DNA of 64,000 nucleotides from Acidimicrobiia bacterium. Lineage in GTDB: Bacteria; Actinomycetota; Acidimicrobiia; Spongiisociales; UBA11373. The stretch covers positions 1,789,469 to 1,853,468 of the forward strand of contig CP129495.1 in NCBI GenBank assembly GCA_030584185.1. The letters run 5' to 3'. This document shows positions 802 through 27,037 of the stretch, in pieces (the first letter of the stretch is position 1; the number at the start of each line of letters is the position of its first letter). Under the pieces are notes generated by a model. That model searched no databases, had not been told where the DNA came from, and saw nothing but the letters and a program-made list of their open reading frames with translations. A program made the translations under genes and the position numbers.

Positions 802-1395
802 TCACGCCCTGCTGACCACTCCCAGGCCGACCACGTCGTTGAGGGTGTCCAGCGCCGTGCTCAGCGGAAGGCCGGCCCGGCCTTCGAGGTCGGCCCGGAC
901 CACCGCCCACCCGGCCTCGAACAGGACCTCGGCGGCCGCCTCCGGGTCGAGCCCGGGACGGATCGAGCCCTCCCGCCGGCCCTGGGCGAGCACCTCGGCC
1001 ATCAACCCCCGGATGCGGGCTCGCTGCAGTTCGGCCGCCCGTTCCGCCACCGGACCGTCCACCAGGTGATCCTCGCCCATCAGGGAGGAGCGGAGCAGCT
1101 CGTCCTCTCCGTAGTGGGTGGCGGCGACGGCCACCAGGGCGCCGAGCCGGTCGGGTGCAGTGCCCGGTCCCCGCAGGGCCGCCTCCGCCCTGGCCACGAA
1201 CCGCTCCAGCGAGTTCTCGACGACCTCGAAGTAGGCGGCCTCCTTGGAGGGGAAGTGCAGGTAGAAGGATCCCTTCCCCACCTCGGCGGTGCGGGTCATC
1301 TCGTCGACGGTGGCCCTTCGATACCCGAACCGCCGGAAGTGGTGCTCGGCGGCGGCGATCAGGCGATCACGGACCTCGGATGGGGCGGTGGACAA
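802..1395 (-). CDS. TetR family transcriptional regulator
   Basis: N-terminal HTH 'RRATVDEMTRTAEVGKGSFYLHFPSKEA' typical of TetR. Confidence 0.8.
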   Translation of the reverse strand: MSTAPSEVRDRLIAAAEHHFRRFGYRRATVDEMTRTAEVGKGSFYLHFPSKEAAYFEVVENSLERFVARAEAALRGPGTAPDRLGALVAVAATHYGEDELLRSSLMGEDHLVDGPVAERAAELQRARIRGLMAEVLAQGRREGSIRPGLDPEAAAEVLFEAGWAVVRADLEGRAGLPLSTALDTLNDVVGLGVVSRA

Positions 1396-1463: not shown

Positions 1464-2639
1464 TTGCAGTACCCGCGTCAGCCTTCCCGCTACCTCGACG
1501 AGGACCTCGACCAGTTCCGAACGGTGGTCGCGTCCTTCGTCGATCGGGAGATCCGCCCCAACGCCGACGAGTGGGAGGCGGCCGGGTCCATCCCCATCGA
1601 CCTGTACCGCAAGGCCTCGGCGGCCGGGCTGATCGGGCTGCGTTACGACCCCAGGTGGGGCGGGGGCGGGGGCGGCTACCTGGCCACCTGCGTCCTCTGC
1701 GAAGAACTGGTCAAGGGGGACAGCGTGGGAACCGCCGTCGGTCTCATGGCCCAGTCCGAGTTCGCCATCTCGGTGCTCGCCGACGAGGCCACCGACGACA
1801 TCAAGGAGCGGTTCCTGGCGCCCGCCATTCGCGGCGAGCTGATCGGCGCCATCGGGGTGAGCGAGCCCGACGCCGGCTCCGACGTGGCCGCCATCACCAC
1901 CCGGGCCCGACGCGACGGCGACCACTTCGTCATCTCCGGCCAGAAGACCTACATCACCAACGGGACCCGTGCCGACTTCATCACCCTGGCGGTGCGCACC
2001 GGTGGCGAGGGGAGCGCCGGCATCTCCCTGGTGGCCTTCCCCACCGACACCCCCGGGTTCTCGGTGGGCCGCAACCTCCCCAAGTTGGGATCCCGCGCCT
2101 CGGACACCGGCGAGCTCTTCTTCGACGAGTGCCGGGTGCCGGTCGCCAACCTGGTCGGGGAGGAGGGCCGCGGCATGCGCTACATCCTGTCCCACTTCGC
2201 CGGCGAGCGGCTGGTGATCGCCGCCTTCGCCGTGGGGATCATGGAGCGGCTCATCGAGCTCGGGGTGGAGTACTCCTCCCAGCGCCGGACCTTCGGCCGT
2301 CCCATCGCCTCCTATCAGACCTGGCGGCATCGCTTCGCCGAGATGGCCACCCGTCTGGAGACGACCCGCCTGCTCGCCTACCAGTCGGCCGACCTGCTCG
2401 ACCGGGGAGAGCCGACCGGGGAGATGGCGGTGGCGATGGCCAAGGCCCACGCCGCATCCTCGGTTCAGTTCGTCGCCGCCGAGATCCTGCAGCTCCATGG
2501 CGGGTTCGGGCAGATGGAGGAGTCCCCGATCCCGCGCTACTACCGCGACGTGGCCGGTTTCTCCATCGGGGCCGGCACCACCGAGATCCAGCGGGAGATC
2601 ATCTCCCGCCACCTGATGCGAGGAGAGGAGGCTCCATGA
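1464..2639 (+). CDS. acyl-CoA dehydrogenase
   Basis: ACAD motifs (YITNG, GGxG, C-terminal 'EIQREIISRHL'); N-terminal part of the track ORF is GC-shadow; TTG/GTG start near 1464 is uncertain. Confidence 0.8.
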   Translation: MQYPRQPSRYLDEDLDQFRTVVASFVDREIRPNADEWEAAGSIPIDLYRKASAAGLIGLRYDPRWGGGGGGYLATCVLCEELVKGDSVGTAVGLMAQSEFAISVLADEATDDIKERFLAPAIRGELIGAIGVSEPDAGSDVAAITTRARRDGDHFVISGQKTYITNGTRADFITLAVRTGGEGSAGISLVAFPTDTPGFSVGRNLPKLGSRASDTGELFFDECRVPVANLVGEEGRGMRYILSHFAGERLVIAAFAVGIMERLIELGVEYSSQRRTFGRPIASYQTWRHRFAEMATRLETTRLLAYQSADLLDRGEPTGEMAVAMAKAHAASSVQFVAAEILQLHGGFGQMEESPIPRYYRDVAGFSIGAGTTEIQREIISRHLMRGEEAP

Positions 2640-3490
2640 GCGAGCGAGTGGGTGCGATCGATGCCTGGATGTCCATCATGTCGCCGGAGACCGCCGAGCG
2701 CTGGCCCGACTCCTTCTGGCACATCTTCGGGAAGTACGGCGTCGAGGATCGCTTCCGGCAGGGGTTCACCCTCGATCAGGTGCTCGCCGAGATGGACCAC
2801 GCCGGCGTGGACATAGGTGTGGCTTCGTCGTTCAAGTTCCTCGACACCTGGGTGGTCACCAACGACGAGACCGCCGCCTATGTGACCGAGGCGCCCGACC
2901 GCCTGGTGGGGTGCTTCACCGTCGACATCAGGGACCCGATGCCGGCGATGCGGGAGTTCCGCCGCTGCGTCGAGGAACTGGGGATGCGGATGTTCCGCCT
3001 GGAGCCGTACCAGTTCGGCGATGGCCGCACCTGGGCGTTCCCTCCTACCCATCGCATGTACTGGCCGTTCTACGTCGCCTGCGTGGAGTACGGGATCCCG
3101 ATCGCGCTCCAGGTGGGGCACACCGGGCCCCTGCTCCCCTCCGAGTGCGGCCGTCCCATCCACCTGGACGAGGTGGCGCTCACCTTCCCCGAGCTGGTCA
3201 TCCTGGGCACCCATGTGGGCAACCCGTGGGAGGAGGAGATGATGGTGCTCGCCTGGAAGCATCCCAACGTCTACGTGGAGACCTCGGCGCGACCCGCCCG
3301 CCACTGGCCGCAGCGGTTGAAGGAGTTCGCCGGGGGGTACGGTCAGGACAAGGTGATCTGGGCAACCGACTACCCGCTGCTCCCCTTCGACCGCACCGTG
3401 CAGGACGTTTACGACTGCGGGTTCTCGCCCGAGGCGACCACCAAGATCCTGCGGGGCAACACCGCCCGCATCCTCGGAATCGAGGCCTGA
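2636..3490 (+). CDS. amidohydrolase-2 family metal-dependent hydrolase
   Basis: ATG at 2636 overlaps the upstream stop (ATGA); TIM-barrel amidohydrolase-like sequence 'HVGNPWEEE...WATDYP'. Confidence 0.65.
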   Translation: MSERVGAIDAWMSIMSPETAERWPDSFWHIFGKYGVEDRFRQGFTLDQVLAEMDHAGVDIGVASSFKFLDTWVVTNDETAAYVTEAPDRLVGCFTVDIRDPMPAMREFRRCVEELGMRMFRLEPYQFGDGRTWAFPPTHRMYWPFYVACVEYGIPIALQVGHTGPLLPSECGRPIHLDEVALTFPELVILGTHVGNPWEEEMMVLAWKHPNVYVETSARPARHWPQRLKEFAGGYGQDKVIWATDYPLLPFDRTVQDVYDCGFSPEATTKILRGNTARILGIEA

Positions 3491-3492
3491 TC

Positions 3493-4497
3493 GTGCGCGC
3501 CCTGGTGCTGCACGGCCCCGGCAACCTGGAGGTGACCAGGGTTCCCGAACCGGTGCCGGAACCGGGCGAGGTGCTCATCTCGGTGCGGGCGGCCGGGATC
3601 TGCGGCACCGATCGTCACATCGTCGCCGGCGACCTACCGGTGCCGCCCGGGACCATCCCCGGGCACGAGGTGGCCGGCGTCATCGTGAAAGGCGTGGGGG
3701 AGTGGGAGCCCGGCCGGCGGGTCCTCTCCTACGGCCAGGTGGTGTGCGGTGAGTGCCGATCGTGCCGGGATGGGGCCTCCCATCGCTGCCGCCGCCCCCA
3801 GGTGCTGGGGATGAGCCGCCCGGGCGGCTTCGCCGAGGCCATCGCCGTGCCGGCGTCGCTCCTGGTGGCGGTACCCGACAAGGTCCCCGACGAGATCGCC
3901 GCCGTCACCCCCGATGCCCTGGCGACCCCGTATCACGCCCTCGTGGCGGTGGGGAGGATCACCGCCGGCGAGGCGGTGGTGATCGTGGGCACCGGCGGGG
4001 TCGGCCTGCAGGCGGTGGCGTTGGCCAAACATCTGGGGGCGGGGACCATCGTGGCGGTGGACCCATCGGCCCCGGCGCGTCAGGCTGCCCTCGCCGCCGG
4101 CGCCGACCATGCCGTGGACCCGGCGGACGGTGATGCACCGAAGGCGATTCACGCCGCCACCGGCGGGGCCGATCTGGCGCTGGAGTGTGTCGGCCGGGCC
4201 GAGTCGGTGGAACTGGCCATGGGGACGTTGGCCCCCGGAGGCCGGCTGGTGGTGGTGGGCGTCGGCCACGACCGGCCGCGGCTCCCCCCGCTGCTCCGTT
4301 TCGTCGCCGGTGAGTACGCCGTGCTCGGCTCCTTCGGGTCCACCATCGCCGAGATCGAGCACCTGCTGGCGACGATGGCCTCTGGTGGCCTGGACGTGCC
4401 CCACGCCGTCTCGCGCACCGTCGATCTCGACGACGCCTCGGCAGTGTTCCGTGAGCCGCCGACACCCGGCCGCACAGTGATCCGAATCCCCGAGTGA
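3493..4497 (+). CDS. zinc-dependent alcohol dehydrogenase (MDR family)
   Basis: 'GICGTDRH', 'GHEVAGVI', structural-Zn motif 'CGECRSCRDG', Rossmann 'GTGGVGL'. Confidence 0.85.
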   Translation: MRALVLHGPGNLEVTRVPEPVPEPGEVLISVRAAGICGTDRHIVAGDLPVPPGTIPGHEVAGVIVKGVGEWEPGRRVLSYGQVVCGECRSCRDGASHRCRRPQVLGMSRPGGFAEAIAVPASLLVAVPDKVPDEIAAVTPDALATPYHALVAVGRITAGEAVVIVGTGGVGLQAVALAKHLGAGTIVAVDPSAPARQAALAAGADHAVDPADGDAPKAIHAATGGADLALECVGRAESVELAMGTLAPGGRLVVVGVGHDRPRLPPLLRFVAGEYAVLGSFGSTIAEIEHLLATMASGGLDVPHAVSRTVDLDDASAVFREPPTPGRTVIRIPE

Positions 4498-4498
4498 G

Positions 4499-5284
4499 GT
4501 GATCCAGATGGAAGACGATGTCCTCTTCGACGAGACCGACGGGATCGCCACCGTCACCCTCAACCGGCCCGACCGGCTCAACACACTTGCCATCCCGACC
4601 GTCGACCTGCTGATGGAGGCGCTCGGCGAGGCCGCCGCCTCTCCTGCCCGGGTGGTGGTGCTCGCCGGGAACGGGAGGGTGTTCTGCGCCGGCGCCGACC
4701 AGGGCGAGATGGTGCCCCGGTCATCGGCGGAATGGGAGGCGATCGTGCGCCACTACCTGGACCCGATCCGGGCGCTGGTGGGCATGGACAAGCCGGTGAT
4801 CGCATCGCTCCACGGCGACACCGTCGGTGGCGGCCTCGGCCTGGCCATGGCCTGCGACATCCGGATCGCCGCCACCGGGATCCGCCTCGGGGCCCCATTC
4901 ACCAAGATCGGCCTCGCCGGATGCGACATGTCGGCCGGGTGGTTCCTGCCTCGCCTGATCGGGTTGGGTGCCGCCGCCGAGCTGATGTTCACCGGCCGCC
5001 TGGTGGATGCCGAGGAGGCGCTGGCGATCGGACTGGTCCATCGGGTGGTGGCCGCCGACGACCACGCCGCCGAGGTGCGGCGCTGGGCGGAGCGCATGGC
5101 GGCCGGGCCGCCGATCGCCCACGCCTGGACCAAGCGGGCCCTGCATCGCTCGCTGGGCACCGACATGGACGGCGAGTTCGAGTTCGAGATCTTCGCCCAG
5201 GTGCAGTGCCTGCAGACCGAGGATCACCGCGAGGGGGTGGCCGCCTTCCAGGAGCGGCGCCCGCCGGAGTTCCGCAATGCGTGA
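4499..5284 (+). CDS. enoyl-CoA hydratase/isomerase (crotonase)
   Basis: crotonase fold motifs 'TLNRPDRLN', 'FCAGAD', '[19 protein letters not shown]'. Confidence 0.85.
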   Translation: MIQMEDDVLFDETDGIATVTLNRPDRLNTLAIPTVDLLMEALGEAAASPARVVVLAGNGRVFCAGADQGEMVPRSSAEWEAIVRHYLDPIRALVGMDKPVIASLHGDTVGGGLGLAMACDIRIAATGIRLGAPFTKIGLAGCDMSAGWFLPRLIGLGAAAELMFTGRLVDAEEALAIGLVHRVVAADDHAAEVRRWAERMAAGPPIAHAWTKRALHRSLGTDMDGEFEFEIFAQVQCLQTEDHREGVAAFQERRPPEFRNA

Positions 5285-6422
5285 CACGCCCGAGCGCTCC
5301 CGGTTCCGGGAGGAGGTGGCACGATTCGCCGCCGCCGAGGTGGCGCCGAACCTTCGGGAGTGGGATGAGTCCGACGCCTACCCGCAGCACCTGTTCCCGC
5401 GCCTCGGGGCCTTGGGCTGGCTGGGTGTCGGGATTCCCGAGGAGGTGGGCGGGTCCGGGGGAGGCCCGTTGGATCGCTGCGCCTTGTTCGAGGAGCTGGC
5501 GGCGGTGTCGCCCGGTGTCGCCCTGGGCATCTACGTGCACGCCGTCCTCGCCTCGGGCGCTCTGGCGACCGTCGCCTCACCCGACCTTCGGCAACGGTTC
5601 CTACCCGGTCTGCTCGCCGGCGAGGTGACCGGGGCCTGGGCGTACGCCGAGCCCGAGGCAGGCGCCGACGTGACCCGGGTCCGGCTGGCGGCCCGTCGCC
5701 ACGGGTCCGGCTTCGTGCTCGAGGGGACCAAGCTCTACATCACCAACGGCACCTTCGCCGACCTGATCCTGGTCGTCGCCCGAACCTCGGGAGAGCCGGG
5801 GTCGCTGCGCGGGCTGACCGTGTTCGCCGTCGACGGGGAGTCGCCCGGCCTGTCCCGACGCCCGATGGCCAAGCTGGGCATGCACCCGTCTGAGCTGGCG
5901 GAGCTCCACTTCGACGGCGTGGAGGTCGCCGCCGACCGGGTGCTCGGTGACGACGAGGGAGGCTTCCGGGCCTGCCTGCCGGTGCTCTCCCAGGGTCGCA
6001 TCTTCGGCGGGGTCATGGCGGTCGGCCTCGGCCGGGGCGCCCTCGGCGCCGCCGTGGCCCACGTCGCCGCCCGGGAGCAGTTCGGCGGACCGCTCCACAG
6101 GCAGCAGGTGGTGCGCTTCACGATCGCCGACATGGCGGCACGCCTCGCCGCCGCCCGTGCCCTGGTGTACGGCGCCGCCGCCGACCTCGAGGCGGGACGG
6201 CCGTACGACACGGCGGCGTCGGTGGCCAAGCTGGCCGCCTCCGAGACCGCCACCTGGATGGCGGAGCGGGCCATGCATCTTCACGGCGCCGCCGGCTACG
6301 TCGCCGGAAGTCCGGTGCAGCGGTTCTACCGCGACTGCAAGATCATCGAGTACGGCGAGGGTGCCAACGAGGTGCAGCGGGAGATGATCTTCGAGGCGGC
6401 TGCCAAGGGATGGCGGCCCTGA
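5277..6422 (+). CDS. acyl-CoA dehydrogenase
   Basis: ATG at 5277 overlapping the hydratase end; ACAD motifs (YITNG, 'EYGEGANEVQREMI'). Confidence 0.85.
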   Translation: MRDTPERSRFREEVARFAAAEVAPNLREWDESDAYPQHLFPRLGALGWLGVGIPEEVGGSGGGPLDRCALFEELAAVSPGVALGIYVHAVLASGALATVASPDLRQRFLPGLLAGEVTGAWAYAEPEAGADVTRVRLAARRHGSGFVLEGTKLYITNGTFADLILVVARTSGEPGSLRGLTVFAVDGESPGLSRRPMAKLGMHPSELAELHFDGVEVAADRVLGDDEGGFRACLPVLSQGRIFGGVMAVGLGRGALGAAVAHVAAREQFGGPLHRQQVVRFTIADMAARLAAARALVYGAAADLEAGRPYDTAASVAKLAASETATWMAERAMHLHGAAGYVAGSPVQRFYRDCKIIEYGEGANEVQREMIFEAAAKGWRP

Positions 6423-6429
6423 CGGGGGT

Positions 6430-7617
6430 TCATACGACGCCGCGCCGGCGCAGGTCGGCCACCTCTGCACGCGAGTAGCCGACCTCGGTGAGCACCTCAT
6501 CTGTGTGCTCGCCGATCGTCGGGGGTCGTCTCCTCGGACGGGGGATCGAACCGTCGAAGGAGAGGGGGAGTGCCGCCACCGGGACCTCGCCGGCTCCGGG
6601 GATGGTCATCTCCTCGAAGATGTCGAGGGCCGACACCTGGGGATGGGTGAGCGCCTGTCGCGGCGTCAGCACAGGGCCCGCCGGGATCCCGGCCTCGGCG
6701 AGGTCGTCGAGAGCTGCGGCGGTGCTGCGCTCCTGGCACCACTCGGCCATGCGGCCGCACAGCAGGTCGGCGTGATCGCCCCTTCCGGCGTCGTCGCCGA
6801 ACCTGGGGTCCTCGGACCACGCCGTCTCTTCGACGAGCGCCGCCCAGCGGCGGAACTGGGCGTTCCCCACCACCTGGACGACGATCCAGCCGTCCCGAGT
6901 GGCGAAGACGTCGGCGGGGGCGGCCACCTGGGCGCGGTTCCCGGTGGGGACCCGATCGCATCCGAGCACGGCCTGTTCGGCGAGCACCGGGGCGGCGATG
7001 GCCAGGGCGGTACCCAGGAGGCTCCCCTCGACGGTGCCACCTCTCCCGGTCCGCTCTCGATCCCAGAGGGCGGCCACGGTGCCGAGTGCCGCCATCGTCG
7101 CCGAGGCGAAGTCGACCCACTGCACGTATGACTTGACCGGCGCGCCGGGTCCGCCCGACAGGTGCGCCGCTCCCGACATCACCTGGCCGACGGCGTCGAA
7201 CCCGGGTCGTTCCGCCCAGGGGCCGGCATCGCCGAAGGCGCTGACTGTTGTGAGCACGATGCGGGGGTCGATCGCCTCGAGGGAGGCGGCATCGATCCCC
7301 ATCCTCCGCAGTGCACCGTCCGGGAGGTTGGCCACCACGACGTCGACGGTGGCCAACAGCCGCCGCAGCACCGCGGCTCCCGCCTCGCCGGTGGGGTCCA
7401 GGGTGATCCCTCGCTTGTTGCGGTTCACTTCGAGGAACATCGCCCCGTTGCCTTCGCCCCCGAGGGGCATCAGGTGACGATCCTCGCTGCCGCCCACCCG
7501 GTCGACCCGGATCACGTCGGCGCCGAGGTCACCGAGCATGGCGGCGCACAGCGGGCCGGCCACGTAGCGACCGAAGTCGAGGACCCGGAACCCGTCGAGG
7601 GGCCGGGGAGCCGTCAC
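6430..7617 (-). CDS. CoA-transferase family III (CaiB/BaiF-like)
   Basis: 'FRVLDFGRYVAGPLCAAMLGDLGADVIRV' N-terminus; GTG start at 7617 overlaps the upstream TetR stop (GTGA). Confidence 0.8.
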   Translation of the reverse strand: MTAPRPLDGFRVLDFGRYVAGPLCAAMLGDLGADVIRVDRVGGSEDRHLMPLGGEGNGAMFLEVNRNKRGITLDPTGEAGAAVLRRLLATVDVVVANLPDGALRRMGIDAASLEAIDPRIVLTTVSAFGDAGPWAERPGFDAVGQVMSGAAHLSGGPGAPVKSYVQWVDFASATMAALGTVAALWDRERTGRGGTVEGSLLGTALAIAAPVLAEQAVLGCDRVPTGNRAQVAAPADVFATRDGWIVVQVVGNAQFRRWAALVEETAWSEDPRFGDDAGRGDHADLLCGRMAEWCQERSTAAALDDLAEAGIPAGPVLTPRQALTHPQVSALDIFEEMTIPGAGEVPVAALPLSFDGSIPRPRRRPPTIGEHTDEVLTEVGYSRAEVADLRRRGVV

Positions 7618-8219
7618 GGGGCGAGCGCCCTGGTGAGCAGGGCCAGGGCGGACTCGAGGTCGTCGGCATCGGGATGCTGCGGCGCCCCCAGGTGGGCCCG
7701 CCCCTCGCGCAGCACCATCATCCCGAGGAACGCCGACCACAGGAGGTCGGCCGCCACCCTGGGCTCGGCCACACCCAGGGCCGCCATCAGATCGGAGAGG
7801 CGTCGGAAGTTCTCGCCGGTCCTTCGGATCAGGTCGGTGGCCACCTCGGGGGCCACCTGCTCCGGGCGGGGATGGGCCAGGTAGGTGGAGACGTGCACGT
7901 ACTCGGGGTGTCGCTCCTGCACCTCACCGAAGAACCGCCACAGCCGGTCAAGCTTCTCGGCGGGATCGCCTCCGGCGTCGAGGATGGTGTCGAGGCCTTC
8001 GGCCCAGAACTGCGACGCCTCGCCCAGCAGCGAGATCATGATCTCGTCCTTGCTGGAGAAGTAGATGAACAGGGTCGCCTCCGAGAGCTCGCATCGCTCG
8101 GCGATCTGACGGGTGGTGGTCCCGGCGAACCCATGGCGGCGCACCAGGTGGCGGGTGGCGTCGAGGATCGCCCGCCTCCGCTCCTGGCGTTCCCGCTGCC
8201 GCCGTTCCTGGGTGCCCAT
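7614..8219 (-). CDS. TetR family transcriptional regulator
   Basis: HTH 'TTTRQIAERCELSEATLFIYFSSKDEI'. Confidence 0.8.
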   Translation of the reverse strand: MGTQERRQRERQERRRAILDATRHLVRRHGFAGTTTRQIAERCELSEATLFIYFSSKDEIMISLLGEASQFWAEGLDTILDAGGDPAEKLDRLWRFFGEVQERHPEYVHVSTYLAHPRPEQVAPEVATDLIRRTGENFRRLSDLMAALGVAEPRVAADLLWSAFLGMMVLREGRAHLGAPQHPDADDLESALALLTRALAP

Positions 8220-9097
8220 CAGGCCCTTCTGCCCAAGGCGAGCATCTGGCGCGCCTCGGTGGGGGAGGCCGGCTCGACTCCCAGCTCACCCATGATGCGC
8301 ACCGCCTTCTCCACTATCTGGCCGTTGGAGGAGGCGAGCTCGCCGGGGCCGATGTAGACGTTGTCCTCCATGCCCACCCGCACCTGGCCGCCCATGGCCA
8401 GCACGGCCCCGAGCATGCGGAAGTGGTTGCGGGCCCCTATCGCCGACACCTGCCACACCGCACCGTCGGGGAGTCCGTCGACCAGGAACACCAGGTTCTT
8501 CACCGTCGCCTCGGTGATCTCCCCCGGGATCCCCATGACGAAGTTGATCAGCATCGGATGCTCCAGCACCTCCCGGGCGATCAGGTCGCGCACGTTGTTG
8601 AGCATCCCGGCGTGATACACCTCCAGCTCGGGTCGCACCCCGTTGTCGCGAAACTCCCTGGCCACCCGCTCCAACTCGCCGTGTGATGAGAACAGGGGCA
8701 CGAAGCGGTCGTTCACCCAGGCCCCGGCGGCAGGGTCGTACCGTCCCAACAACGCCCCGCCCCCGACGCTGAAGGAGGCGATCTCGGGTCTCAGCTCGGG
8801 GACGACCCGGATCCGCTCCTCCAGGGGGATCCCGGCGACGGCGCCCCCGGTGGTCAGGTTGAGCACGGCGTCGCAGCCCGCCGCTCGGATCCCGTCGACG
8901 ATGGTTCGGAAGGTCTCGACGTCCGAGGTGGCCTTCCCGGCGGCATCGCGGGCGTGGATGTGGAGGATCGCCGCCCCGGCGTTCCATGCCTCCATCGCCT
9001 GGGCGACGATCTCCTCGGGCTGTTCCGGCAGGGCGGGATTGGCCTCCTTGCCCTGTTGGGCGCCGGTGAGGGCGCAGGTGACGATGGTCCGGTTCAC
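8219..9097 (-). CDS. beta-keto acid cleavage enzyme (BKACE/DUF849, 3-keto-5-aminohexanoate cleavage enzyme-like)
   Basis: 'VNRTIVTCALTGAQQ...' N-terminus typical of the Kce family; GTG start at 9097 preceded by GGAGG; upstream stop overlaps. Confidence 0.65.
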   Translation of the reverse strand: MNRTIVTCALTGAQQGKEANPALPEQPEEIVAQAMEAWNAGAAILHIHARDAAGKATSDVETFRTIVDGIRAAGCDAVLNLTTGGAVAGIPLEERIRVVPELRPEIASFSVGGGALLGRYDPAAGAWVNDRFVPLFSSHGELERVAREFRDNGVRPELEVYHAGMLNNVRDLIAREVLEHPMLINFVMGIPGEITEATVKNLVFLVDGLPDGAVWQVSAIGARNHFRMLGAVLAMGGQVRVGMEDNVYIGPGELASSNGQIVEKAVRIMGELGVEPASPTEARQMLALGRRA

Positions 9098-9876
9098 TTC
9101 TCGCCTCCCTCGAACTCGGCGGGCCGCTTCTCCAGGAACGAGCCCATCCCCTCCTTCTGCTCCCTGGTGAGCCAGTTGAGCACCACGGTGTTGATCGAGA
9201 AGTCGATCGCCGCCTCCAGGTCGGTGGTCATCCACTTGTGGATGATCTCCTTCTGGGTGGCCAGGGCTGGTGCCGGTTTGGAGCCCAGCAGGTCCACCCA
9301 TCGCTCCACCTCCGTGCCCAGATCTGCCTGCGGGACGGCGGCGTGGATCAGCCCCCGTGCCAGGGCCTTGGCGGCATCCCAGCGTGCTCCGGTGTACGCC
9401 AGCTCGCGTGCCCCCTGGATCCCGACCGCCAGGGGCAGGATCGCCGCCTCGACGATGGCGGGGATCCCTCGATCGATGTTGGGCAGCCCGAAGGTGGAGC
9501 GATCGGAGGCGATCATGAAGTCGCAGGAGAGTGCCAGTTCCAGCCCGGCGCCCAGGCACAGCCCGTCGATGGCCGCGACGATCGGCTTCTCGGTGGTGCG
9601 CAGCGCCAGGAAGGTACGGTGCAGCTCCCGGCCCACCTCGCGCACCTCGGGTCCCGACATGTCCCGCACCCAGGCGACGTCGATCCCGGCGCTGAACGCC
9701 CGGTCCGAAGCCGAGTCGATCAGGATCACGCCCACCTCGGGATCGGCGGCAGCCTCCTCCAGGGCGTGTCGGATCTCGGTGAGCATCGTCGCGTCGATGG
9801 CGTTGAGCACCTCCGGACGAGCGAGCGTCATGTGGTAGGTGCGTCGCTGGCGCCTGCAGGCGATGGTCGTGGTCAT
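9094..9876 (-). CDS. enoyl-CoA hydratase/isomerase
   Basis: crotonase motifs 'FSAGIDV', 'AAIDGLCLGAGLELALSCD'. Confidence 0.85.
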   Translation of the reverse strand: MTTTIACRRQRRTYHMTLARPEVLNAIDATMLTEIRHALEEAAADPEVGVILIDSASDRAFSAGIDVAWVRDMSGPEVREVGRELHRTFLALRTTEKPIVAAIDGLCLGAGLELALSCDFMIASDRSTFGLPNIDRGIPAIVEAAILPLAVGIQGARELAYTGARWDAAKALARGLIHAAVPQADLGTEVERWVDLLGSKPAPALATQKEIIHKWMTTDLEAAIDFSINTVVLNWLTREQKEGMGSFLEKRPAEFEGGEK

Positions 9877-9877
9877 C

Positions 9878-10669
9878 TCATCTCCCCTCGAATCTGGGTG
9901 GTCGCTTCTCCTTGAAGGCGGCGAGGCCCTCCTGGACGTCTTCGGTCTGGCGCAGCGGCTCGGCGATCAGCTGCTCGAATCGGAGGCCGTCGGCCAGGGG
10001 GAGGTGGCGTCCACCGCGCACGGCGGTGAGGACCGCCTCGATGGAGAGCGGGGCGTTGGCGGCGATCCGTTCGGCCACACGAATGGCCTCCGGGAGCAGG
10101 TCCCCGGCGGCGACCACCCGGCTCACCAGCCCGCAACGCAGGGCGGTGGCGGCGTCGATGGGGTCGCCGGTGAGCAGCATCTCCATCGCCACCGCCGCCG
10201 GGATCGCCCTGGGGAGCCGCTGGGTGCCGCCCGCCCCCGGCATCAGGCCCCAGCGCACCTCGGGGAGCCCGAAGGTGGCGTTCTCCGCGGCGAGGCGCAG
10301 ATCGCAGGCCAGCGCCATCTCCAGCCCTCCGGCGAGGCAGGCGCCGTTCACGGCGGCGATGATCGGCTTGGCCACCTCAAGGTTGCGGGTGATGCCGCCC
10401 AACCCCGGTTCGGTCTCGGCGTGGCGCCGCCGCTCCATCGGGGTCATCGAGCGGTACCAGTCGCCAACGTGCTTGAGGTCGGCTCCGGCGCAGAAGGCGC
10501 GGTCCCCGGCGCCGGTGAGGACTGCCACCCGCAGGGCGGGATCGGCGGCGAAGCGGCGCCACGCCTCGACGAGATGCCACCCGGTCTCCGGGTCGATGGC
10601 GTTGCGCGCCTCCGGCCGGTCGATGGTGATCACCAGCACGGCATCGTGCCGATCCTCCCTGATGCTCAT
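9878..10669 (-). CDS. enoyl-CoA hydratase/isomerase
   Basis: ATG 'MSIREDRHDAVLVITIDRP' at 10669 overlaps the upstream stop; 'FCAGADL', 'AAVNGACLAGGLEMALACD'. Confidence 0.85.
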   Translation of the reverse strand: MSIREDRHDAVLVITIDRPEARNAIDPETGWHLVEAWRRFAADPALRVAVLTGAGDRAFCAGADLKHVGDWYRSMTPMERRRHAETEPGLGGITRNLEVAKPIIAAVNGACLAGGLEMALACDLRLAAENATFGLPEVRWGLMPGAGGTQRLPRAIPAAVAMEMLLTGDPIDAATALRCGLVSRVVAAGDLLPEAIRVAERIAANAPLSIEAVLTAVRGGRHLPLADGLRFEQLIAEPLRQTEDVQEGLAAFKEKRPPRFEGR

Positions 10670-11076
10670 GGTGTCGCCTCCGTTGGCTCGAATCCGTCGA
10701 TGTCGGTGATGCTGCCGCGGCGTTCGGCGGCGAAGCGGGGGCGAAGGCGGGCGCTGTGACGCCACGACGAGGGTTCGCCGAGCAGGCGGTGAAGCATGTC
10801 GGTTCCGGCACCGTCGAGCCGGATCAGGCCGAAACCGCCGCGCACCGGATCGAAGGTGCGGGCGACGAGCACGCCTTCCGGCCCGACCGGAACCAGGTCG
10901 CCGGTGCGTTCGCCGCACCGCGGGCAGAAAGAACGAGCCGGTGTGACCACGAGGTCGCAGCCGGGGCACCGCGCACCCAGGATCTCGGCACGATCCTGCA
11001 GTGCGGCCAGGAACGCCGATGTCGCCGGGCCTGCGGCGTAGGTGAAGGTCAGGTGGATCGACCCTTCGTGGATCAT
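10666..11076 (-). CDS. DUF35 OB-fold/Zn-ribbon acyl-CoA-associated protein
   Basis: Zn ribbon 'CPGCD...CPRCG' plus OB-fold; ATGA coupling at both ends. Confidence 0.7.
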   Translation of the reverse strand: MIHEGSIHLTFTYAAGPATSAFLAALQDRAEILGARCPGCDLVVTPARSFCPRCGERTGDLVPVGPEGVLVARTFDPVRGGFGLIRLDGAGTDMLHRLLGEPSSWRHSARLRPRFAAERRGSITDIDGFEPTEATP

Positions 11077-11519
11077 CGGATCACCTCGAAGTGGAGTATG
11101 TCGTCCATCGCCCCTCGCCGCTCGGGCCGCCACACCGCCTGCACCCTGTCGCCGATCCGCGGCTCGACACCGTCCGGCAGCTGGAGGTAGTGGTTGAGGG
11201 TGGTGTCGGCGCCGTCGAGCCGGATCAGCCCCATGCCGTAGGGTGAGGGGCGCATCTCGCCGGATCGCCCGTCGCGGATGGGCAGGTGAACCAGGGTCCA
11301 CGCCTCCAGGACGCCCCGGTCCGTCACCGGCACCCACTCCGTGATCGCCAGCCGGCATCGCCCGCAGAACGGGCGCGGCGGCAGGTAGCGCCTCCCACAG
11401 CCGGTGCAGCGCCCCGCCTCCAGGCGGCCCTCGGCCACACCTTCGAGGAACCGCCGCATGGGTGCGGAGGCGGCGTAGCGCCAGGTGAGGTCCATCTCGG
11501 CCGAGACCGACCCGGTCAT
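11073..11519 (-). CDS. DUF35 OB-fold/Zn-ribbon acyl-CoA-associated protein
   Basis: 'CTGCGRRYLPPRPFCGRC' rubredoxin-like Zn ribbon; ATGA coupling. Confidence 0.7.
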   Translation of the reverse strand: MTGSVSAEMDLTWRYAASAPMRRFLEGVAEGRLEAGRCTGCGRRYLPPRPFCGRCRLAITEWVPVTDRGVLEAWTLVHLPIRDGRSGEMRPSPYGMGLIRLDGADTTLNHYLQLPDGVEPRIGDRVQAVWRPERRGAMDDILHFEVIR

Positions 11520-12673
11520 GGCTCCTCCGATCTCATCACGATCACATCGCTCCAGGCGTACACCCCGTACCCGGTGGCGAGGGCGGTGGCCGCCCCGGGA
11601 ACCTGATGCTCTCCGGCGCGGCCCATCAGCTGCGCCGCCGCCTCGGCGACCCGGATCACCCCGGAGGCGCCGACCGGATTGGTGGAGAGCACCCCGCCTG
11701 ACGGGTTCACCGGAAGCGTGCCCTCCATCGAGGTGATGCCCTCGTCGATGAGCCTTCCCGCTTCGCCCTCCGGGCAGAAGCCGAGGGCCTCGTACCACGC
11801 CAGCTCGGCGTAGGTGACCGGCTCGTAGATCTCGGCCACATCGATGTCGGACAGGGGATCGCCGATGGCGGCCTTGGAGTACGCCTCGGCGGCGGCGGAG
11901 CGCAGCGCCTCCATGGTGGCCATGCGACGGTCCAGGTCGCCCAGGTAGGGCTGGTCGTGGCGGGTCGAGGCGGCGTGTACCCAGGCGGCAGGGGTGGCCA
12001 TGTCGCGGGTGGCGCCGGCCGAGGCGACGACGATGGCGGCGGCGCCGTCCGACTGCGGGCACATGTCGAGCATCCGCAGCGGGTGGGCCAGCATGCGCGA
12101 CTCGAGGACCTGCTCCACGGTGAGATCGGGCATCTGCAGGTGGGCGTGGGGGTTGCGGGCGGCGTTGTGGCGCGCCTTCACCGCCACCTGGGCCGCCTGG
12201 CGTTCGGTGACGCCCCGCGCCGCCATGTACTGCGATATGGAGAGGGCGAAGTTGCCCACGGCACCCGACGCCACGGCCCGGTCCCAGAACGGGTCGGTCA
12301 GAGCCATTCCGGTTTGGGTGTGACCTTCGGAGTGTTTCTCGAATCCGACCACCAGCACCAGGTCGAAGGCACCCGAGCCCGCCTGGTGGAACCCGGCGAT
12401 GCAGGCGCTGGTGCCCGAGGTGCCGCCGGTGGCGACCTTGAGGCAGGGCCTGCCCGTGGCGTATGCCGCCTCGCCCACCCACAGCTCGGGATGGAGCCTT
12501 CCCTCGAACAGCTCCATGTTGGAGATGATCACGGCGTCGAGGTCGTCGGGTCGCAGCCCGGCATCGGTGAGGGCGGCGGAGGCGGCCTCTCGCACCAGGT
12601 CGGCCTGCGAGGCGTCGTCGCGGGCGCGGGTGTGCCGGGTCTGACCGGTGCCGATCACCGCCACCGGGTTCAT
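11516..12673 (-). CDS. thiolase (SCP-x/lipid-transfer-protein-type, Ltp-like)
   Basis: thiolase fold, C-terminal 'NPSGG...GASG'; ATG at 12673 overlaps the upstream stop. Confidence 0.75.
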   Translation of the reverse strand: MNPVAVIGTGQTRHTRARDDASQADLVREAASAALTDAGLRPDDLDAVIISNMELFEGRLHPELWVGEAAYATGRPCLKVATGGTSGTSACIAGFHQAGSGAFDLVLVVGFEKHSEGHTQTGMALTDPFWDRAVASGAVGNFALSISQYMAARGVTERQAAQVAVKARHNAARNPHAHLQMPDLTVEQVLESRMLAHPLRMLDMCPQSDGAAAIVVASAGATRDMATPAAWVHAASTRHDQPYLGDLDRRMATMEALRSAAAEAYSKAAIGDPLSDIDVAEIYEPVTYAELAWYEALGFCPEGEAGRLIDEGITSMEGTLPVNPSGGVLSTNPVGASGVIRVAEAAAQLMGRAGEHQVPGAATALATGYGVYAWSDVIVMRSEEP

Positions 12674-13707
12674 CGTCCCTCCACCACTGCCACCGCCTGG
12701 CCCTGGCCCGCCGGCCCCCAGGTCCCGTGGGCCAGGGCCCGTGTATTGGCTCTTCCACCGACAGCTCGTGCCGCCGCCAGCAGCCGGGAGAGCCCGGCAA
12801 CCAGAGGCATCGCCCCGGCGAAGAGCCCGCCGCCGGGCACGAGGGAAGTTCCGGGGCCGACTCCGGTGGCGGCGACGAAGAGGTCCTCCTCGTGCGGGAA
12901 CCGGCATGAGGGGGCGACCAGGGCGATGGCGGTGGCGGGGTCGTCGACTCCGGCCTGGCGGTAGGCGCGTTCGCAGGCGCGGGCCAGTCCGTCCCAGCGC
13001 ACCAACGACCTGTCGGGGTGGTGGGCGGCGAGGTCGTGCCCGACCCCGGTGATCACCGGAGTCGCGTCGTCGGCCGCCCCGTCGAGGATGACGGCGCACG
13101 CTCCGTCGGCGAGGGGTGCCCCGATGGCGGCGGTGATCGGTTCGGCCAGGGGCTCGGCCTCCAGGATCGCCGCCGGGGATCTGCGCACTCCTGCAGTGGC
13201 GAATCTGCGGGCGGCGACGCCGGCCCAGCGGCGCATGGCTGCCTCGGGGTCGTCGCCGGCCACGAGGTCGGCCTGGAGCCCGGAGACGATGGCGAAGTCG
13301 ACACCGAGCGGCTGCAGCAGGATCGGGTCCATCGCCCACGGCGTGAGGTCGCGGTGCGGCGCCATCGACGGCTTGCAGTGGGCCACCACCAACACTCGCC
13401 GGTAGGCGCCGGAACGGATCTGGTGCACGGCGTGAATGGCCGCAGCCAGGCCGTCTGCGGCGATCCGGGTCTCCGGGGCCATGACCCCGCCCACAACTTC
13501 GGTGACGGCGATGTTCGATGCGGTGAGGCCGTCGTAGAGATCGGCGGAGGCGGTGACGGTGGCGTCGAGGTCGTCCCATCCGCAGCCGGCATCGTCGAGG
13601 GCGCCGAGCACCGCCTCGAGGACCATCTCCGGGATGGAGCGGGGGTCCTCGACGACCGGGCCCACCTCGTGACCGCCGAGGACGCCCACCGGTGCTGCCT
13701 GGGGCAT
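12670..13707 (-). CDS. thiolase-like protein (Ltp2-like partner subunit)
   Basis: thiolase-like fold, first gene of a coupled nine-gene operon. Confidence 0.6.
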   Translation of the reverse strand: MPQAAPVGVLGGHEVGPVVEDPRSIPEMVLEAVLGALDDAGCGWDDLDATVTASADLYDGLTASNIAVTEVVGGVMAPETRIAADGLAAAIHAVHQIRSGAYRRVLVVAHCKPSMAPHRDLTPWAMDPILLQPLGVDFAIVSGLQADLVAGDDPEAAMRRWAGVAARRFATAGVRRSPAAILEAEPLAEPITAAIGAPLADGACAVILDGAADDATPVITGVGHDLAAHHPDRSLVRWDGLARACERAYRQAGVDDPATAIALVAPSCRFPHEEDLFVAATGVGPGTSLVPGGGLFAGAMPLVAGLSRLLAAARAVGGRANTRALAHGTWGPAGQGQAVAVVEGR

Positions 13708-13785
13708 GGGGGAAGGATAGCGTTTGGTGATGAACGGCGCTCAGTAGATGAGTGACGTTCAGTATGTGAGAGACGGGGAATGGAG

Positions 13786-13826
13786 GGTGTGGCGCGTCTC
13801 CTCCCCCGCAGGGGGAGGAGACGCGC
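13786..13826. repeat. perfect 17-bp-stem palindrome GGCGCGTCTCCTCCCCC-GCA-GGGGGAGGAGACGCGCC in the bioY/thiolase intergenic region
   Basis: read directly; a second imperfect hairpin follows at about 13880-13910. Confidence 0.7.
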
Positions 13827-13989
13827 CACGTGACAGAGGTTTCGTAGGGTCTGCCCCCTCCCGGCTTCGCCGTGCTTTCCCTGCGGGGGGGAGGAAAGCC
13901 CGACTCGAACGCACAGGGTGCGACAAGGTGTGTGACGCGTCCCCGCCCCCGACCCGGAGGAGATGGTCGCTGCTCGCTACCCTCGGACC

Positions 13990-14568
13990 ATGACCACCGC
14001 ACCAGGCGTCATCGCCGTCCGCATCATTCCCAGGACCCAGATCGCCACCGCCGTCGTCGGGTTCGCTCTGCTCACCGCGGCCGCAGCCCAGGTGACCTTC
14101 CCCCTGTGGTTCACGCCGGTCCCGATCACGGGGCAGACCTTCGTGGTCCTGCTCGCCGGGGCCACCCTCGGGGTGCGCGCCGGCGCCGCCTCCCAGGGGC
14201 TGTATGTGATGCTGGGCGCAATCGGACTTCCGTTCTACGCCGGCGGAGAGGGTGGTTGGTCGGCGGCGACCGGTGCCACCGGCGGGTATCTGGTCGGTTT
14301 CGTCATGGCGGCGGCGCTCGTCGGGGCGCTCGCCGAGAGGGGCCACGACCGCAACCCGCTGACCGCCATTCCCGCCTTCCTCGCCGGGACGGCCGTGATC
14401 TACCTGGTCGGTGTCGCCTGGCTGGCCCGCGTTCTCCAGGTCGGCGCCACCGAGGCCATGGAGCTGGGCATGGTGCCGTTCGTCCTGGGCGATCTGGTCA
14501 AGGTGGCGCTGGCCGGGCTGGCCCTTCCGGCGGTGTGGCGGATGGTGGGGGAGATCCCGAAGGGTTGA
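13990..14568 (+). CDS. bioY: biotin transporter BioY (ECF S component)
   Basis: 'FPLWFTPVPITGQTFVVLLAG' BioY signature, about 5 TM helices. Confidence 0.85.
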   Translation: MTTAPGVIAVRIIPRTQIATAVVGFALLTAAAAQVTFPLWFTPVPITGQTFVVLLAGATLGVRAGAASQGLYVMLGAIGLPFYAGGEGGWSAATGATGGYLVGFVMAAALVGALAERGHDRNPLTAIPAFLAGTAVIYLVGVAWLARVLQVGATEAMELGMVPFVLGDLVKVALAGLALPAVWRMVGEIPKG

Positions 14569-26450: not shown

Positions 26451-26484
26451 GGAACCGCAGGTTCGCCCAATCCGTCGAAGGGGT

Positions 26485-26960: not shown

Positions 26961-27037
<77 letters not shown>

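Follow-up and report, generated by a model that had tools for sequence, protein, structure and literature searches.

Introduction

What chemistry is encoded by a nine-gene operon that brings together two thiolase-fold proteins, two DUF35 proteins, two crotonases and a BKACE enzyme, and towards which substrates is it directed? The operon lies on the minus strand, at positions 6430-13707, of a stretch of 64,000 nucleotides (hereafter the window) of the genome of an Acidimicrobiia bacterium (GenBank assembly GCA_030584185.1, contig CP129495.1, positions 1,789,469 to 1,853,468). A sequence-only reading of this DNA had pictured it as a steroid or branched-chain side-chain retro-aldolase module recalling the Ltp2/ChsH2-DUF35 lyases, in which the presence of BKACE was regarded as unusual. 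Beyond this particular genome, the turnover of branched and alicyclic acids in seawater, sediments and groundwater is poorly explained. Here we describe how the operon forms part of a rare cluster of 13 genes, in which the thiolase-fold pair has lost the residues of thiolases and BKACE is a constant companion. As a general mechanism we propose a pathway that leads past the block posed by a beta-branch by means of a Cys-less lyase and BKACE, a proposal for which we see the chances as evenly balanced.

The thiolase-fold pair of the nine-gene operon

Nine co-directional open reading frames with coding-type third-position GC fill the whole span. Their start codons were chosen from the N-termini of homologues and third-position GC, and the lengths of the first four products (345, 385, 148 and 136 amino acids) are equal in independent gene calls made on public contigs with an identical T2 protein. 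Pfam, NCBIfam and an AlphaFold2 model of the first gene product bear out the families and the order in which the sequence-only reading had placed them (thiolase-like, thiolase, DUF35, DUF35, crotonase, crotonase, BKACE, TetR and family III CoA-transferase):

12670-13707, minus strand: g1 (T1), thiolase-fold protein, Ltp4-like, 345 amino acids, without the catalytic Cys (NCBIfam, AlphaFold2 model)
11516-12673, minus strand: g2 (T2), SCP2-type thiolase-fold protein, Ltp3-like, 385 amino acids (Pfam, NCBIfam)
11073-11519, minus strand: g3 (Da), DUF35 protein with Cys4 zinc ribbon and OB fold (Pfam)
10666-11076, minus strand: g4 (Db), second DUF35 protein (Pfam, alignment)
9878-10669, minus strand: g5 (ECHa), enoyl-CoA hydratase, EchA19-like (ECH_1, 1e-67)
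9094-9876, minus strand: g6 (ECHb), crotonase-fold protein (ECH_1, 2e-49)
8219-9097, minus strand: g7, BKACE, GTG start (PF05853, 4e-88)
7614-8219, minus strand: g8, TetR-family regulator (TetR_N, 1e-14)
6430-7617, minus strand: g9, family III CoA-transferase, GTG start (CoA_transf_3, 3e-109)

Both proteins of the pair belong to the thiolase superfamily with its five-layer alpha-beta-alpha-beta-alpha fold, T2 through its Pfam domains (Thiolase_N and Thiolase_C_1, with 401 bits against PRK08313) and T1 through its model. The T1 sequence has no match in Pfam and, searched alone, none in the PDB, thiolases being reached only by profile; its best NCBIfam match is PRK07937 'lipid-transfer protein' (93 bits), and the NCBIfam matches to 'lipid-transfer protein/thiolase' families are weak. 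The AlphaFold2 model of T1 (pLDDT 78, pTM 0.83) shows a thiolase fold, which matches DUF35-partnered SCP2-type thiolases and the Sal and Ltp2 aldolases with TM-scores of 0.7-0.8 and a match probability of 1.0, the closest structural neighbours being an archaeal thiolase/HMGCS complex, PhlABC, MucABC, BbsAB, Sal-Shy(DUF35) and Ltp2-ChsH2(DUF35).

The residues of T2 were read from HMMER alignments with two thiolases, 6esq (archaeal acetoacetyl-CoA thiolase) and 6hsj (SCP2-thiolase of zebrafish). The nucleophilic Cys is replaced by Gly (ATGGTSG against aaCASG of 6esq), the HDCF motif has become YEPV with loss of the acid/base Cys, and the catalytic His of GHP is an Asn (NP), a triple loss that is kept in 44 T2 orthologues from other genomes. 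T1 carries RIAADG at the site of the Cys, PSC..PHEE in the HDCF region and GGLF.G at the GHP position, and its motifs RIAADG, AHxKxS, EPSCxxPHEE and HGxWGP are nearly invariant in about 46 orthologues. The missing catalytic Cys that the sequence-only reading had asked after in the first thiolase is thus a feature of both proteins, in 44-46 orthologues. With the nucleophilic Cys, the HDCF Cys and the catalytic His all looked for and absent, g1 and g2 are, as far as active-site residues tell, not thiolases. A Gly at the nucleophile position excludes thiolysis, and the first residue of the HDCF-type motif acts as catalytic base, being Tyr in both Ltp2 (YDHF) and Sal (YDCY) (PMC12329534). T2 retains a Tyr at this position (AEIYEPV), as read from the SCP2-thiolase alignment and the published equivalence of HDCF, YDHF and YDCY (PMC12329534), and is the probable catalytic subunit of a lyase.

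Relationship to the Ltp3/Ltp4 proteins and their partners

Proteins 44-46% identical to T2, annotated as paired 'thiolase domain-containing proteins', were found by tblastn in plasmid records of Streptomyces, Tsukamurella, Nocardia and Rhodococcus. The Tsukamurella locus encodes a crotonase, an AMP-ligase, an OB-fold protein (309 amino acids) and two thiolase-like proteins (359 and 390 amino acids), is adjoined by an F420 oxidoreductase, a P450 and a 'steroid 3-ketoacyl-CoA thiolase', and matches the order fadD19-echA19...Rv3520c-Rv3521-ltp4-ltp3 of Mycobacterium tuberculosis (PMC6429209). T2 is 45% identical to the Ltp3-like protein (2e-99, 288 bits), with the common motifs AEIY.P and NPSGGVLS.NP.GASG, and T1 aligns over its full length with the Ltp4-like protein of Tsukamurella (31% identity, 75 bits). 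In this line, ECHa is 42% identical to the EchA19-like crotonase of the same locus, against 33% and 26% for the other two crotonases of the window, one of which (ECHc) is encoded outside the nine genes. The best NCBIfam match of g5 is likewise EchA19, with 282 bits, under the 400-bit cut-off.

The DUF35 proteins fit the same scheme. The product of g3 (Pfam zf-ChsH2 and OB_ChsH2_C) finds its best match in the C-terminal half of a fused double-DUF35, Rv3521-like protein (38% identity), and residues 7-133 of g4, for which Pfam reports zf-ChsH2 only, align to the N-terminal half of the Rv3521-like protein with 34% identity, as a full-length DUF35 half. On these homologies, g1-g5 read as a rearranged and split version of the Ltp4/Ltp3/Rv3521/EchA19 module. 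The sequence-only reading was therefore right in seeing a C-C lyase-type module related by homology to steroid side-chain enzymes; the resemblance to Ltp2/ChsH2-DUF35 also exists, although the Ltp3/Ltp4/Rv3521 and EchA19 proteins are closer, T2 scoring 2e-99 there compared with 1e-27 for Ltp2 (and 8e-23 for Sal). Lacking the acid catalyst, the MaoC partner and the steroid context, g1-g4 fall outside the Ltp2/Sal group.

According to the accounts of the work of Wilbrink 2012 given in PMC6678751, PMC10832528 and PMC6593523, Ltp3 and Ltp4 are genetically required for the degradation of C24-branched sterol side chains and have been proposed to form a heteromeric aldol-lyase. In the proposed cleavage, a hydrated beta-branched acyl-CoA with a carboxyl on the branch would give a short acyl-CoA and a carboxylate that 'must' be re-thioesterified (PMC6678751). 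In our own reading of the scheme, this carboxylate is, chemically, a free beta-keto acid.

The crotonases encoded with the pair differ in their active sites. ECHa keeps both catalytic Glu residues in 31 of 31 matched orthologues, whereas ECHb has lost the second one (an E/N pair in 40 of 40) and ECHc has neither (a G/F pair in all 24 orthologues matched). Judged by these residues, ECHa would be the one true hydratase, and ECHb and ECHc must catalyse chemistry other than hydration; ECHb could be an isomerase, a decarboxylase or a retro-Claisen hydrolase.

BKACE and the conserved 13-gene cluster

The product of g7 matches PF05853 along profile positions 2-274 of 274 with 295.7 bits (cut-off 24.8), and stays under the cut-off of every named NCBIfam equivalog (Kce, 257 against 382 bits; 3,5-dioxohexanoate, 210 against 430; 3-oxoadipate, 170 against 350). 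The motifs HxH, ELE and GMED of the solved Kce-family proteins 3lot and 9zsc have their aligned counterparts in ILHIHARD, PELEVY and VGMEDN of g7, and we assume for these segments the roles of the Kce motifs in Zn binding and catalysis (HxH, the Glu of ELE and the Glu-Asp of MED).

A profile scan of one genome per GTDB species revealed 56 related loci, all of them in metagenome-assembled genomes (MAGs), a number that is a lower bound because the scan used two exact peptide patterns. These loci were annotated with the window proteins as queries, and Pfam calls on two long contigs agree with the result. The hosts are Acidimicrobiia, Gaiellales, Solirubrobacterales, Alpha-, Beta-, Gamma- and Deltaproteobacteria, Myxococcota, Acidobacteriota/Thermoanaerobaculia and Anaerolineae, as well as Woeseiaceae. 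In many phyla the genes form a single canonical operon with the order ACADa-T1-T2-Da-Db-ECHa-ECHb-BKACE-Amidohydro_2-(hotdog thioesterase)-ECHc-(hotdog thioesterase)-ACADb-TetR-Zn-ADH, where ACAD stands for acyl-CoA dehydrogenase, ECH for enoyl-CoA hydratase family members and ADH for a medium-chain dehydrogenase. Where 6.5 kb or more follow the T1 start, as they do in 31 loci, BKACE is always present; 28 of these loci contain all seven genes from T1 to BKACE, and all 13 families are present in 15 of the 21 longer loci. BKACE, which had looked unusual when only the window was in view, is an obligate member of the cluster and not an oddity of this genome. The nine-gene unit itself does not hold as such: the conserved set comprises 13 genes, including those of a convergent operon, and the CoA-transferase is an addition of one clade.

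The cluster is rare, not generic or universal. In a large protein collection, homologues of T1 were found with 99% and 88% identity in two raw-read assemblies and then with at most 64% identity in MAGs; among 1.84 billion cluster representatives, searched exhaustively with a profile hidden Markov model, only 159 proteins reached E <= 1e-30, and no match to T1 was found among the 72,556 plasmids of PLSDB. Where the sequence-only reading had left room for full Cys-His-Cys triads in a universally present fatty-acid operon, the residues are absent and the operon is an uncommon one. Sequenced samples in which the cluster occurs include SRR24881069, DRR779145 and DRR779146.

In the clade of the window (L004, L006, L008, L009 and L012 among the related loci) the set is split into two convergent operons. 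The second one, the ACAD-amidohydrolase-ADH-crotonase-ACAD operon already noticed in the sequence-only reading, is found at 1464-6422, with 7 nt between its stop and that of g9 (6422-6430) and with no hairpin or terminator between the two stops in a repeat search. Its genes and those next to it are:

1464-2639, plus strand: ACADa, acyl-CoA dehydrogenase of the IVD/LCAD type (Pfam ACAD domains)
2669-3490, plus strand: Amidohydro_2 metal-dependent hydrolase, decarboxylase or hydratase (PF04909, 1e-39)
3493-4497, plus strand: Zn-dependent medium-chain dehydrogenase, Zn-ADH (Pfam ADH_N, ADH_zinc_N)
4499-5284, plus strand: ECHc, crotonase-fold protein (ECH_1, 1.5e-53)
5277-6422, plus strand: ACADb, acyl-CoA dehydrogenase (Pfam)
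802-1395, minus strand: second TetR, divergent from ACADa (TetR_N)
3-725, plus strand: 3' part of a gene for a Liv-type periplasmic binding protein, a possible uptake component (Peripla_BP_6)

Because both halves form one operon in other lineages, the convergent operon is regarded as functionally part of the same pathway as g1-g9. ACADa, whose top named solved relatives include isovaleryl-CoA dehydrogenase (IVD) and LCAD, has IGAGT(S/T)E instead of YEGT and carries GERLV on the helix that bears the base of IVD and LCAD, both features being kept in orthologues; by analogy with IVD and LCAD, we take them to represent the Gly that replaces the Glu of loop J-K and the catalytic Glu on helix G. ACADb has a Gly directly before its catalytic Glu (xGEG), also kept in orthologues. 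The same Gly-Glu feature of ThnO, common to IVD, has been linked to substrates with a tertiary beta-carbon (PMC11659651). Both dehydrogenases thus appear to carry active-site features of enzymes that accept beta-branched substrates.

Among the remaining products of the convergent operon, the best solved relative of the Amidohydro_2 protein is the uncharacterised BB4693 (3irs), with weaker matches to decarboxylases of the ACMSD and resorcylate types and to oxalomesaconate hydratase (the ACMSD/LigJ group). The Zn-ADH resembles threonine-3-dehydrogenases and secondary alcohol dehydrogenases, and has a weak match to 6-hydroxycyclohex-1-ene-1-carbonyl-CoA dehydrogenase. The Peripla_BP_6 family is also found beside the cluster of L002, and the cluster of L001 has Liv-type permeases as neighbours.

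The canonical cluster has no built-in CoA ligase or CoA-transferase. In the window this function may fall to g9, a full-length CoA_transf_3 protein (366 bits) whose nearest solved relative is the succinate-hydroxymethylglutarate CoA-transferase (SUGCT, 9br7; 3e-51) and whose best NCBIfam match is succinate-glutarate CoA-transferase; alpha-methylacyl-CoA racemase is not among its strong matches. The Asp of its WVDFA segment aligns with the Asp of AMTDLA in SUGCT, presumably the position of the catalytic Asp of family III. Orthologues of g9 occur, among the related loci, only in L004, L006, L008 and L009, and g9 is a clade-specific addition to the cluster. An AMP-ligase lies beside the cluster in 12 other loci. 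When the flanking open reading frames of the 56 loci were clustered, a CoA ligase and two hotdog thioesterases were the only recurrent extras, and transporters and other flanking genes, which recur in 2-4 loci each, offered no clue to the substrate. No homologue of that ligase or of those thioesterases is present in the window. In many canonical clusters the two small hotdog-fold (PaaI-like) thioesterase genes lie on either side of ECHc, one towards Amidohydro_2 and the other towards ACADb (e.g., L017, 16353-16787; L014, 18033-18512), and in L004 one such gene lies between BKACE and TetR, alongside the CoA-transferase.

A candidate operator

Two 13-bp dyads, TGAACGGCGCTCA at 13731-13743 and TGAGTGACGTTCA at 13749-13761, stand 18 bp apart at 24-54 nt upstream of the ATG of g1, and make a candidate operator for g8. 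In 24 of 55 related loci (L002, L006-L009, L012, L020, L022, L023, L031-L034, L038-L041, L044, L046, L048, L049, L051, L052 and L056), which belong to several phyla, the relaxed pattern TGA[GA]N5[CT]TCA stands no more than 250 nt ahead of the first cluster gene, often as pairs with the same 18-bp spacing. Its background is 0.066 per kb, and the pair at 13731-13761 accounts for the only hits in the window. The relaxation was needed, as the exact pattern TGAACG-N-CGTTCA has zero matches in the related loci. Orthologues of g8, with 47-72% identity, are located inside the cluster in most of the related loci. On the evidence of this conservation the paired dyad is a candidate conserved operator, most simply of the cluster TetR g8, and the fact that the dyad is kept upstream of clusters that sit in very different genomes suggests that regulator and operator travel together with the cluster.

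Other signals in the neighbourhood were of a different kind. In the intergenic region between the divergent g1 and BioY genes, at 13789-13829, the two perfectly matching 19-bp arms of an inverted repeat enclose a 3-nt loop (GTGGCGCGTCTCCTCCCCC tgc GGGGGAGGAGACGCGCCAC). This repeat has no T-run, and a degenerate third arm is seen nearby at 13932-13950. A further dyad, CTGACC-N13-GGTCAG at 1419-1443, faces the second TetR gene (802-1395), and was read by eye, not having been returned by the repeat search. Neither a sigma-70-type promoter nor an intrinsic terminator was found around g1.

A proposed pathway past the beta-branch

The enzyme activities, the order of the steps and the class of substrate set out below are our proposal, built on the homologies, the residue losses and the conservation of cluster and dyads described above. 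The core, g1-g4, would be a heteromeric thiolase-fold C-C lyase in which T1 and T2 are each probably capped by a DUF35 protein of their own. The pathway would begin with the uptake of a carboxylic acid, probably dicarboxylic and beta-substituted (3-substituted glutarate-like, acyclic or alicyclic), and with its conversion to a CoA ester by g9 in the window or by an AMP-ligase in other lineages. ACADa or ACADb would then introduce a 2,3 double bond, and g5 would hydrate it to a tertiary beta-hydroxyacyl-CoA, which cannot be oxidised to a ketone. At this point T1, T2, Da and Db would perform a retro-aldol cleavage, releasing either acetyl-CoA or propionyl-CoA and, as the ketone product, a free beta-keto acid. 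The BKACE g7 may convert the beta-keto acid and acetyl-CoA into acetoacetate and a shortened acyl-CoA, a re-activation at no cost of ATP, and ECHb, ECHc, the Amidohydro_2 protein and the Zn-ADH would handle side groups or the remaining chain. The whole would be repressed by the TetR g8 through the paired TGAG-N5-CTCA dyads upstream of g1, with release presumably brought about by a CoA ester of the pathway.

The constant company of BKACE and the T1/T2/DUF35 genes would find its reason in this scheme, because the BKACE reaction would re-activate the beta-keto acid left by the lyase. The relatedness of g9 to succinate-hydroxymethylglutarate CoA-transferase, the Liv-type uptake genes and the CoA ligases near the cluster are also counted in favour of the model. 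In its full form, the proposal is that of an undescribed 'retro-aldol plus beta-keto-acid transfer' shunt round the beta-branch block, in which T1/T2 with their two DUF35 caps split a tertiary beta-hydroxyacyl-CoA and a dedicated BKACE re-activates the keto acid free of ATP, a shunt that horizontal transfer would have carried among uncultured bacteria of the sea, the subsurface and groundwater, in six phyla or more, and that may serve to degrade carboxylic acids of branched or alicyclic structure (isoprenoid-derived, naphthenic or CRAM-like). So specific a proposal is put forward tentatively, and we rate it somewhat short of an even chance.

Several points weigh against this scheme. The general acids of the steroid aldolases are missing from T2: a Pro stands at the place of the essential Cys304 of Sal, and an Asn at that of Tyr344 of Ltp2, the equivalence of the thiolase His position with Tyr344 of Ltp2 and Gln352 of Sal being an estimate from residue spacing rather than a direct alignment. 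No carboxylase is encoded in the cluster, and the carboxylated branch must therefore be assumed to pre-exist in the substrate. The link between the motifs of the acyl-CoA dehydrogenases and their substrates is a correlation, drawn from one paper and from general knowledge of IVD and LCAD. ECHb, ECHc, the Amidohydro_2 protein, the Zn-ADH, the second acyl-CoA dehydrogenase and the two hotdog thioesterases of other lineages have no definite place in the model, and a place for BKACE at the start of the pathway, on a beta-keto acid made by the ADH from a hydroxy acid, is as conceivable as one after the lyase. Finally, we found no enzyme assays on cluster members or on Ltp3/Ltp4 in the searchable literature.

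Alternative explanations

The alternative that survives best is a specific version of the model just described, in which the cluster processes the ring of alicyclic acids in the way of the lower thn pathway of anaerobic naphthalene degradation. Its substrate would be similar to 2-carboxycycloalkylacetyl-CoA, a glutaryl-CoA with a 3,4-bridge; cleavage by the lyase would give acetyl-CoA together with a cyclic beta-keto acid, and the ring would be opened by BKACE and the non-canonical crotonases. The thn operon offers the same list of parts, with a two-subunit lyase proposed for the tertiary hydroxyl (PMC11659651, Table S1), and the Gly-Glu feature of ThnO is found in ACADb. Moreover, both dehydrogenases have sub-threshold matches to cyclohexane-carbonyl-CoA and non-decarboxylating glutaryl-CoA dehydrogenases, and ECHb and ECHc lack hydratase residues, as ring-cleaving crotonases do. 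However, the lyase candidates of thn are AtuA-like and not thiolase-like, ThnP is a family I transferase, and the thn system could be compared by description only; no aryl-CoA reductase or other ring-reducing genes are found nearby, and most of the hosts are probably aerobes. Altogether, we hold this version to be unlikely, with perhaps some chance of being right, but we take an alicyclic substrate seriously as a sub-hypothesis of the model.

A different place for BKACE would be at the beginning. A free beta-hydroxy acid, perhaps freed from a lactone or amide by the Amidohydro_2 protein, would be oxidised by the Zn-ADH to a beta-keto acid and turned by BKACE into an acyl-CoA, as in carnitine catabolism, the lyase acting later. 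This would suit a canonical 13-gene cluster with no CoA ligase or transferase of its own, and the adjacency of BKACE, Amidohydro_2 and hotdog thioesterase genes, as BKACE and a thioesterase also adjoin in dehydrocarnitine cleavage, a likeness that we count in its favour; g5 has, in addition, a sub-threshold match to crotonobetainyl-CoA hydratase. Nevertheless, 12 loci have an AMP-ligase next to the cluster and the clade of the window has a CoA-transferase there, neither an HADH-type carnitine dehydrogenase nor betaine genes are present, and the ADH is the last gene of the canonical operon, after TetR. We find an entry of this type improbable.

The steroid interpretation of the sequence-only reading, that is, a module removing a sterol or bile-acid side chain or its C24 branch in the manner of Ltp2/ChsH2 or Ltp3/Ltp4, can appeal to the real homology of g1-g5 with Ltp4/Ltp3/Rv3521/EchA19 and to a weak similarity of the TetR to KstR (38.6 bits). 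Nothing else related to steroids was found: genes of the cyp125/142, fadD19, mce4, kstD, kshA, hsa and MaoC-type ChsH kinds are absent from the window and the 56 related loci, the uptake gene codes for an ABC binding protein of the Liv type and not for Mce4, and the hosts, MAGs of Acidimicrobiia, Gaiellales, Anaerolineae, Woeseiaceae, Thermoanaerobaculia and others, are not known as steroid degraders. In the other direction, the actinobacterial sterol loci with Ltp3/4 carry no BKACE. A role in steroid breakdown is accordingly given little chance.

Ordinary thiolytic beta-oxidation with a DUF35-assisted thiolase, of the BbsAB (benzoylsuccinyl-CoA) or archaeal type and acting on fatty, aryl- or alkyl-succinate substrates, is very improbable: archaeal acetoacetyl-CoA thiolase and BbsB are among the best solved relatives of T2, the family III CoA-transferase, dehydrogenase, hydratase and acyl-CoA dehydrogenase make up the Bbs parts list, and g9 matches benzylsuccinate CoA-transferase subunits at 1e-33 to 1e-36, but none of the orthologues of T1 or T2 has the nucleophilic Cys, the acid/base Cys and the His are gone from T2 as well, Gly at the nucleophile position rules out thiolysis (PMC12329534), and the cluster is far from generic. 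The idea of a CoA-independent or condensing acyl transfer in the synthetic direction (as in PhlABC/MucABC or the thiolase/HMG-CoA-synthase/DUF35 complex), with BKACE supplying acetoacetate or acyl-CoA, is similarly remote, since the architecture of two thiolase folds and DUF35 is indeed common to PhlACB, MucABC and the archaeal complex, all among the best structural matches of T1, while the chemistry of PhlC and HMGCS depends on an active-site Cys that T1 and T2 do not have, a partner of the KAS III or HMGCS type is absent, and the surroundings (two acyl-CoA dehydrogenases, TetR, uptake genes, CoA ligase or transferase) are catabolic.

Layout and surroundings of the locus

Regarding the layout of the operon, the sequence-only reading had described an ATGA or GTGA overlap at every junction. 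Such 4-nt overlaps are found at 6 of the 8 junctions of g1-g9, the exceptions being g5/g6, where TGAgATG leaves a 1-nt spacer, and g7/g8, where TGATG is a 1-nt overlap. Tight coupling of this sort is ordinary in operons of genomes with about 70% GC and unremarkable alone; the GC content on the left side of the window is about 70%.

To the right of g1 comes BioY, followed by actinobacterial housekeeping genes (a Lon/PDZ protease, a DivIVA-like protein and UPF0182). The BioY biotin-transporter gene (13990-14568) is divergent from g1 and is likewise a neighbour of the cluster on the public contig L062, an adjacency that is probably a coincidence, because no biotin-dependent carboxylase was seen near the cluster in any locus. 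Farther on, at 25341-26910, a gene for a bacterial eRF1-like protein (baeRF family 3/7) and an Emfourin/DUF6438-like gene precede a tRNA-Met (CAT) gene at 26961-27037. The tRNA gene marks a drop in GC from about 0.70 to 0.62-0.66, and the 37 kb to its right (27000-64000) look like an integrated island. This region contains two IS3-type copies in inverted orientation, at 29487-30721 (plus strand) and 36429-37379 (minus strand), each with an rve integrase open reading frame and an ALIL frameshift pseudoknot (29771-29902 and 37248-37379, both 50.5 bits). They flank a P-type ATPase gene (31997-33832) in a layout like that of a composite transposon.

Comparison with known systems

The searchable literature has no description of the BKACE pairing, of an architecture of these 13 genes, of the operator or of the confinement to uncultured lineages. 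We found there no BKACE accompanied by DUF35 or by thiolase-ECH-amidohydrolase clusters, and a NetSyn study of BKACE contexts mentions neither thiolase nor DUF35. If the model holds, the cluster and its own operator would become a conserved marker of uncultured Acidimicrobiia, Gaiellales, Anaerolineae, Woeseiaceae and others that break down branched or alicyclic acids. Two systems were considered as direct counterparts and rejected. The carnitine/gamma-butyrobetaine pathway, suggested by BKACE and by CaiB/CaiD-like and acyl-CoA dehydrogenase matches, was set aside, as the matches are far below cut-off and there are no carnitine dehydrogenase or betaine genes. The thn operon was discarded as a direct homologue on account of its AtuA-like lyase candidates and family I transferase (PMC11659651).

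As a functional parallel, the lower thn pathway (ThnL-ThnV) resembles the cluster in having two acyl-CoA dehydrogenases, three enoyl-CoA hydratases, a metal-dependent hydrolase, a CoA-transferase and a two-subunit lyase for a tertiary beta-hydroxyacyl-CoA. Besides its lyase candidates and its transferase, it differs in having true thiolases and no BKACE. The HMG-CoA lyase and Liu/Atu pathways for beta-methyl-branched acyl-CoAs share the logic of the proposed route, as they hydrate a 3-substituted enoyl- or glutaconyl-CoA to a tertiary alcohol and split this in retro-aldol fashion into acetyl-CoA and a beta-keto acid. There, however, the lyase is a TIM-barrel HMG-CoA lyase or AtuA, in contrast with the thiolase fold proposed here; no biotin carboxylase is present in our cluster, and BKACE would re-activate the keto acid.

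With the BKACE family (Kce, dehydrocarnitine, 3-oxoadipate and 3,5-dioxohexanoate enzymes), g7 shares the full-length PF05853 domain and the active motifs, but it scores below all named equivalogs and its genomic partner is a thiolase-fold lyase with DUF35. If the model is correct, DUF35-capped thiolase-fold lyases and BKACE would be newly linked, through a cleavage to a free beta-keto acid followed by its ATP-free re-activation.

Ltp2-ChsH2 and Sal-Shy share with the window proteins the thiolase fold, the Gly at the nucleophile position, the Tyr that opens the xDCx motif and a DUF35 partner with zinc ribbon and OB fold, as well as, by extension to T1/T2, beta-hydroxyacyl-CoA chemistry. Those enzymes are homodimers whose DUF35 is fused to a MaoC hydratase (ChsH2, Shy), whereas here a heterodimer is predicted, DUF35 is free-standing and the hydratase would be a crotonase.

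The closest system is the Ltp3/Ltp4 (Rv3523/Rv3522) module, with which the cluster shares a small Cys-less thiolase-like gene placed first and a larger one next, two DUF35 units and an EchA19-like crotonase nearby. In the window the DUF35 units are separate downstream genes instead of one fused upstream gene, the sterol context (fadD19, cyp125/142, the KstR regulon) is absent and the hosts are uncultured bacteria not known to degrade steroids, and BKACE, Amidohydro_2, two extra crotonases and two acyl-CoA dehydrogenases have been added. Should the model hold, it would provide the first biochemical role of Ltp3/Ltp4-type proteins outside steroid degraders, and an experimentally tractable relative of the mycobacterial Rv3521-Rv3523 of the cholesterol regulon. 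In the same way, the proposed shunt, if true, would point to a missing re-activation step after Ltp3/Ltp4 in the degradation of phytosterol side chains.

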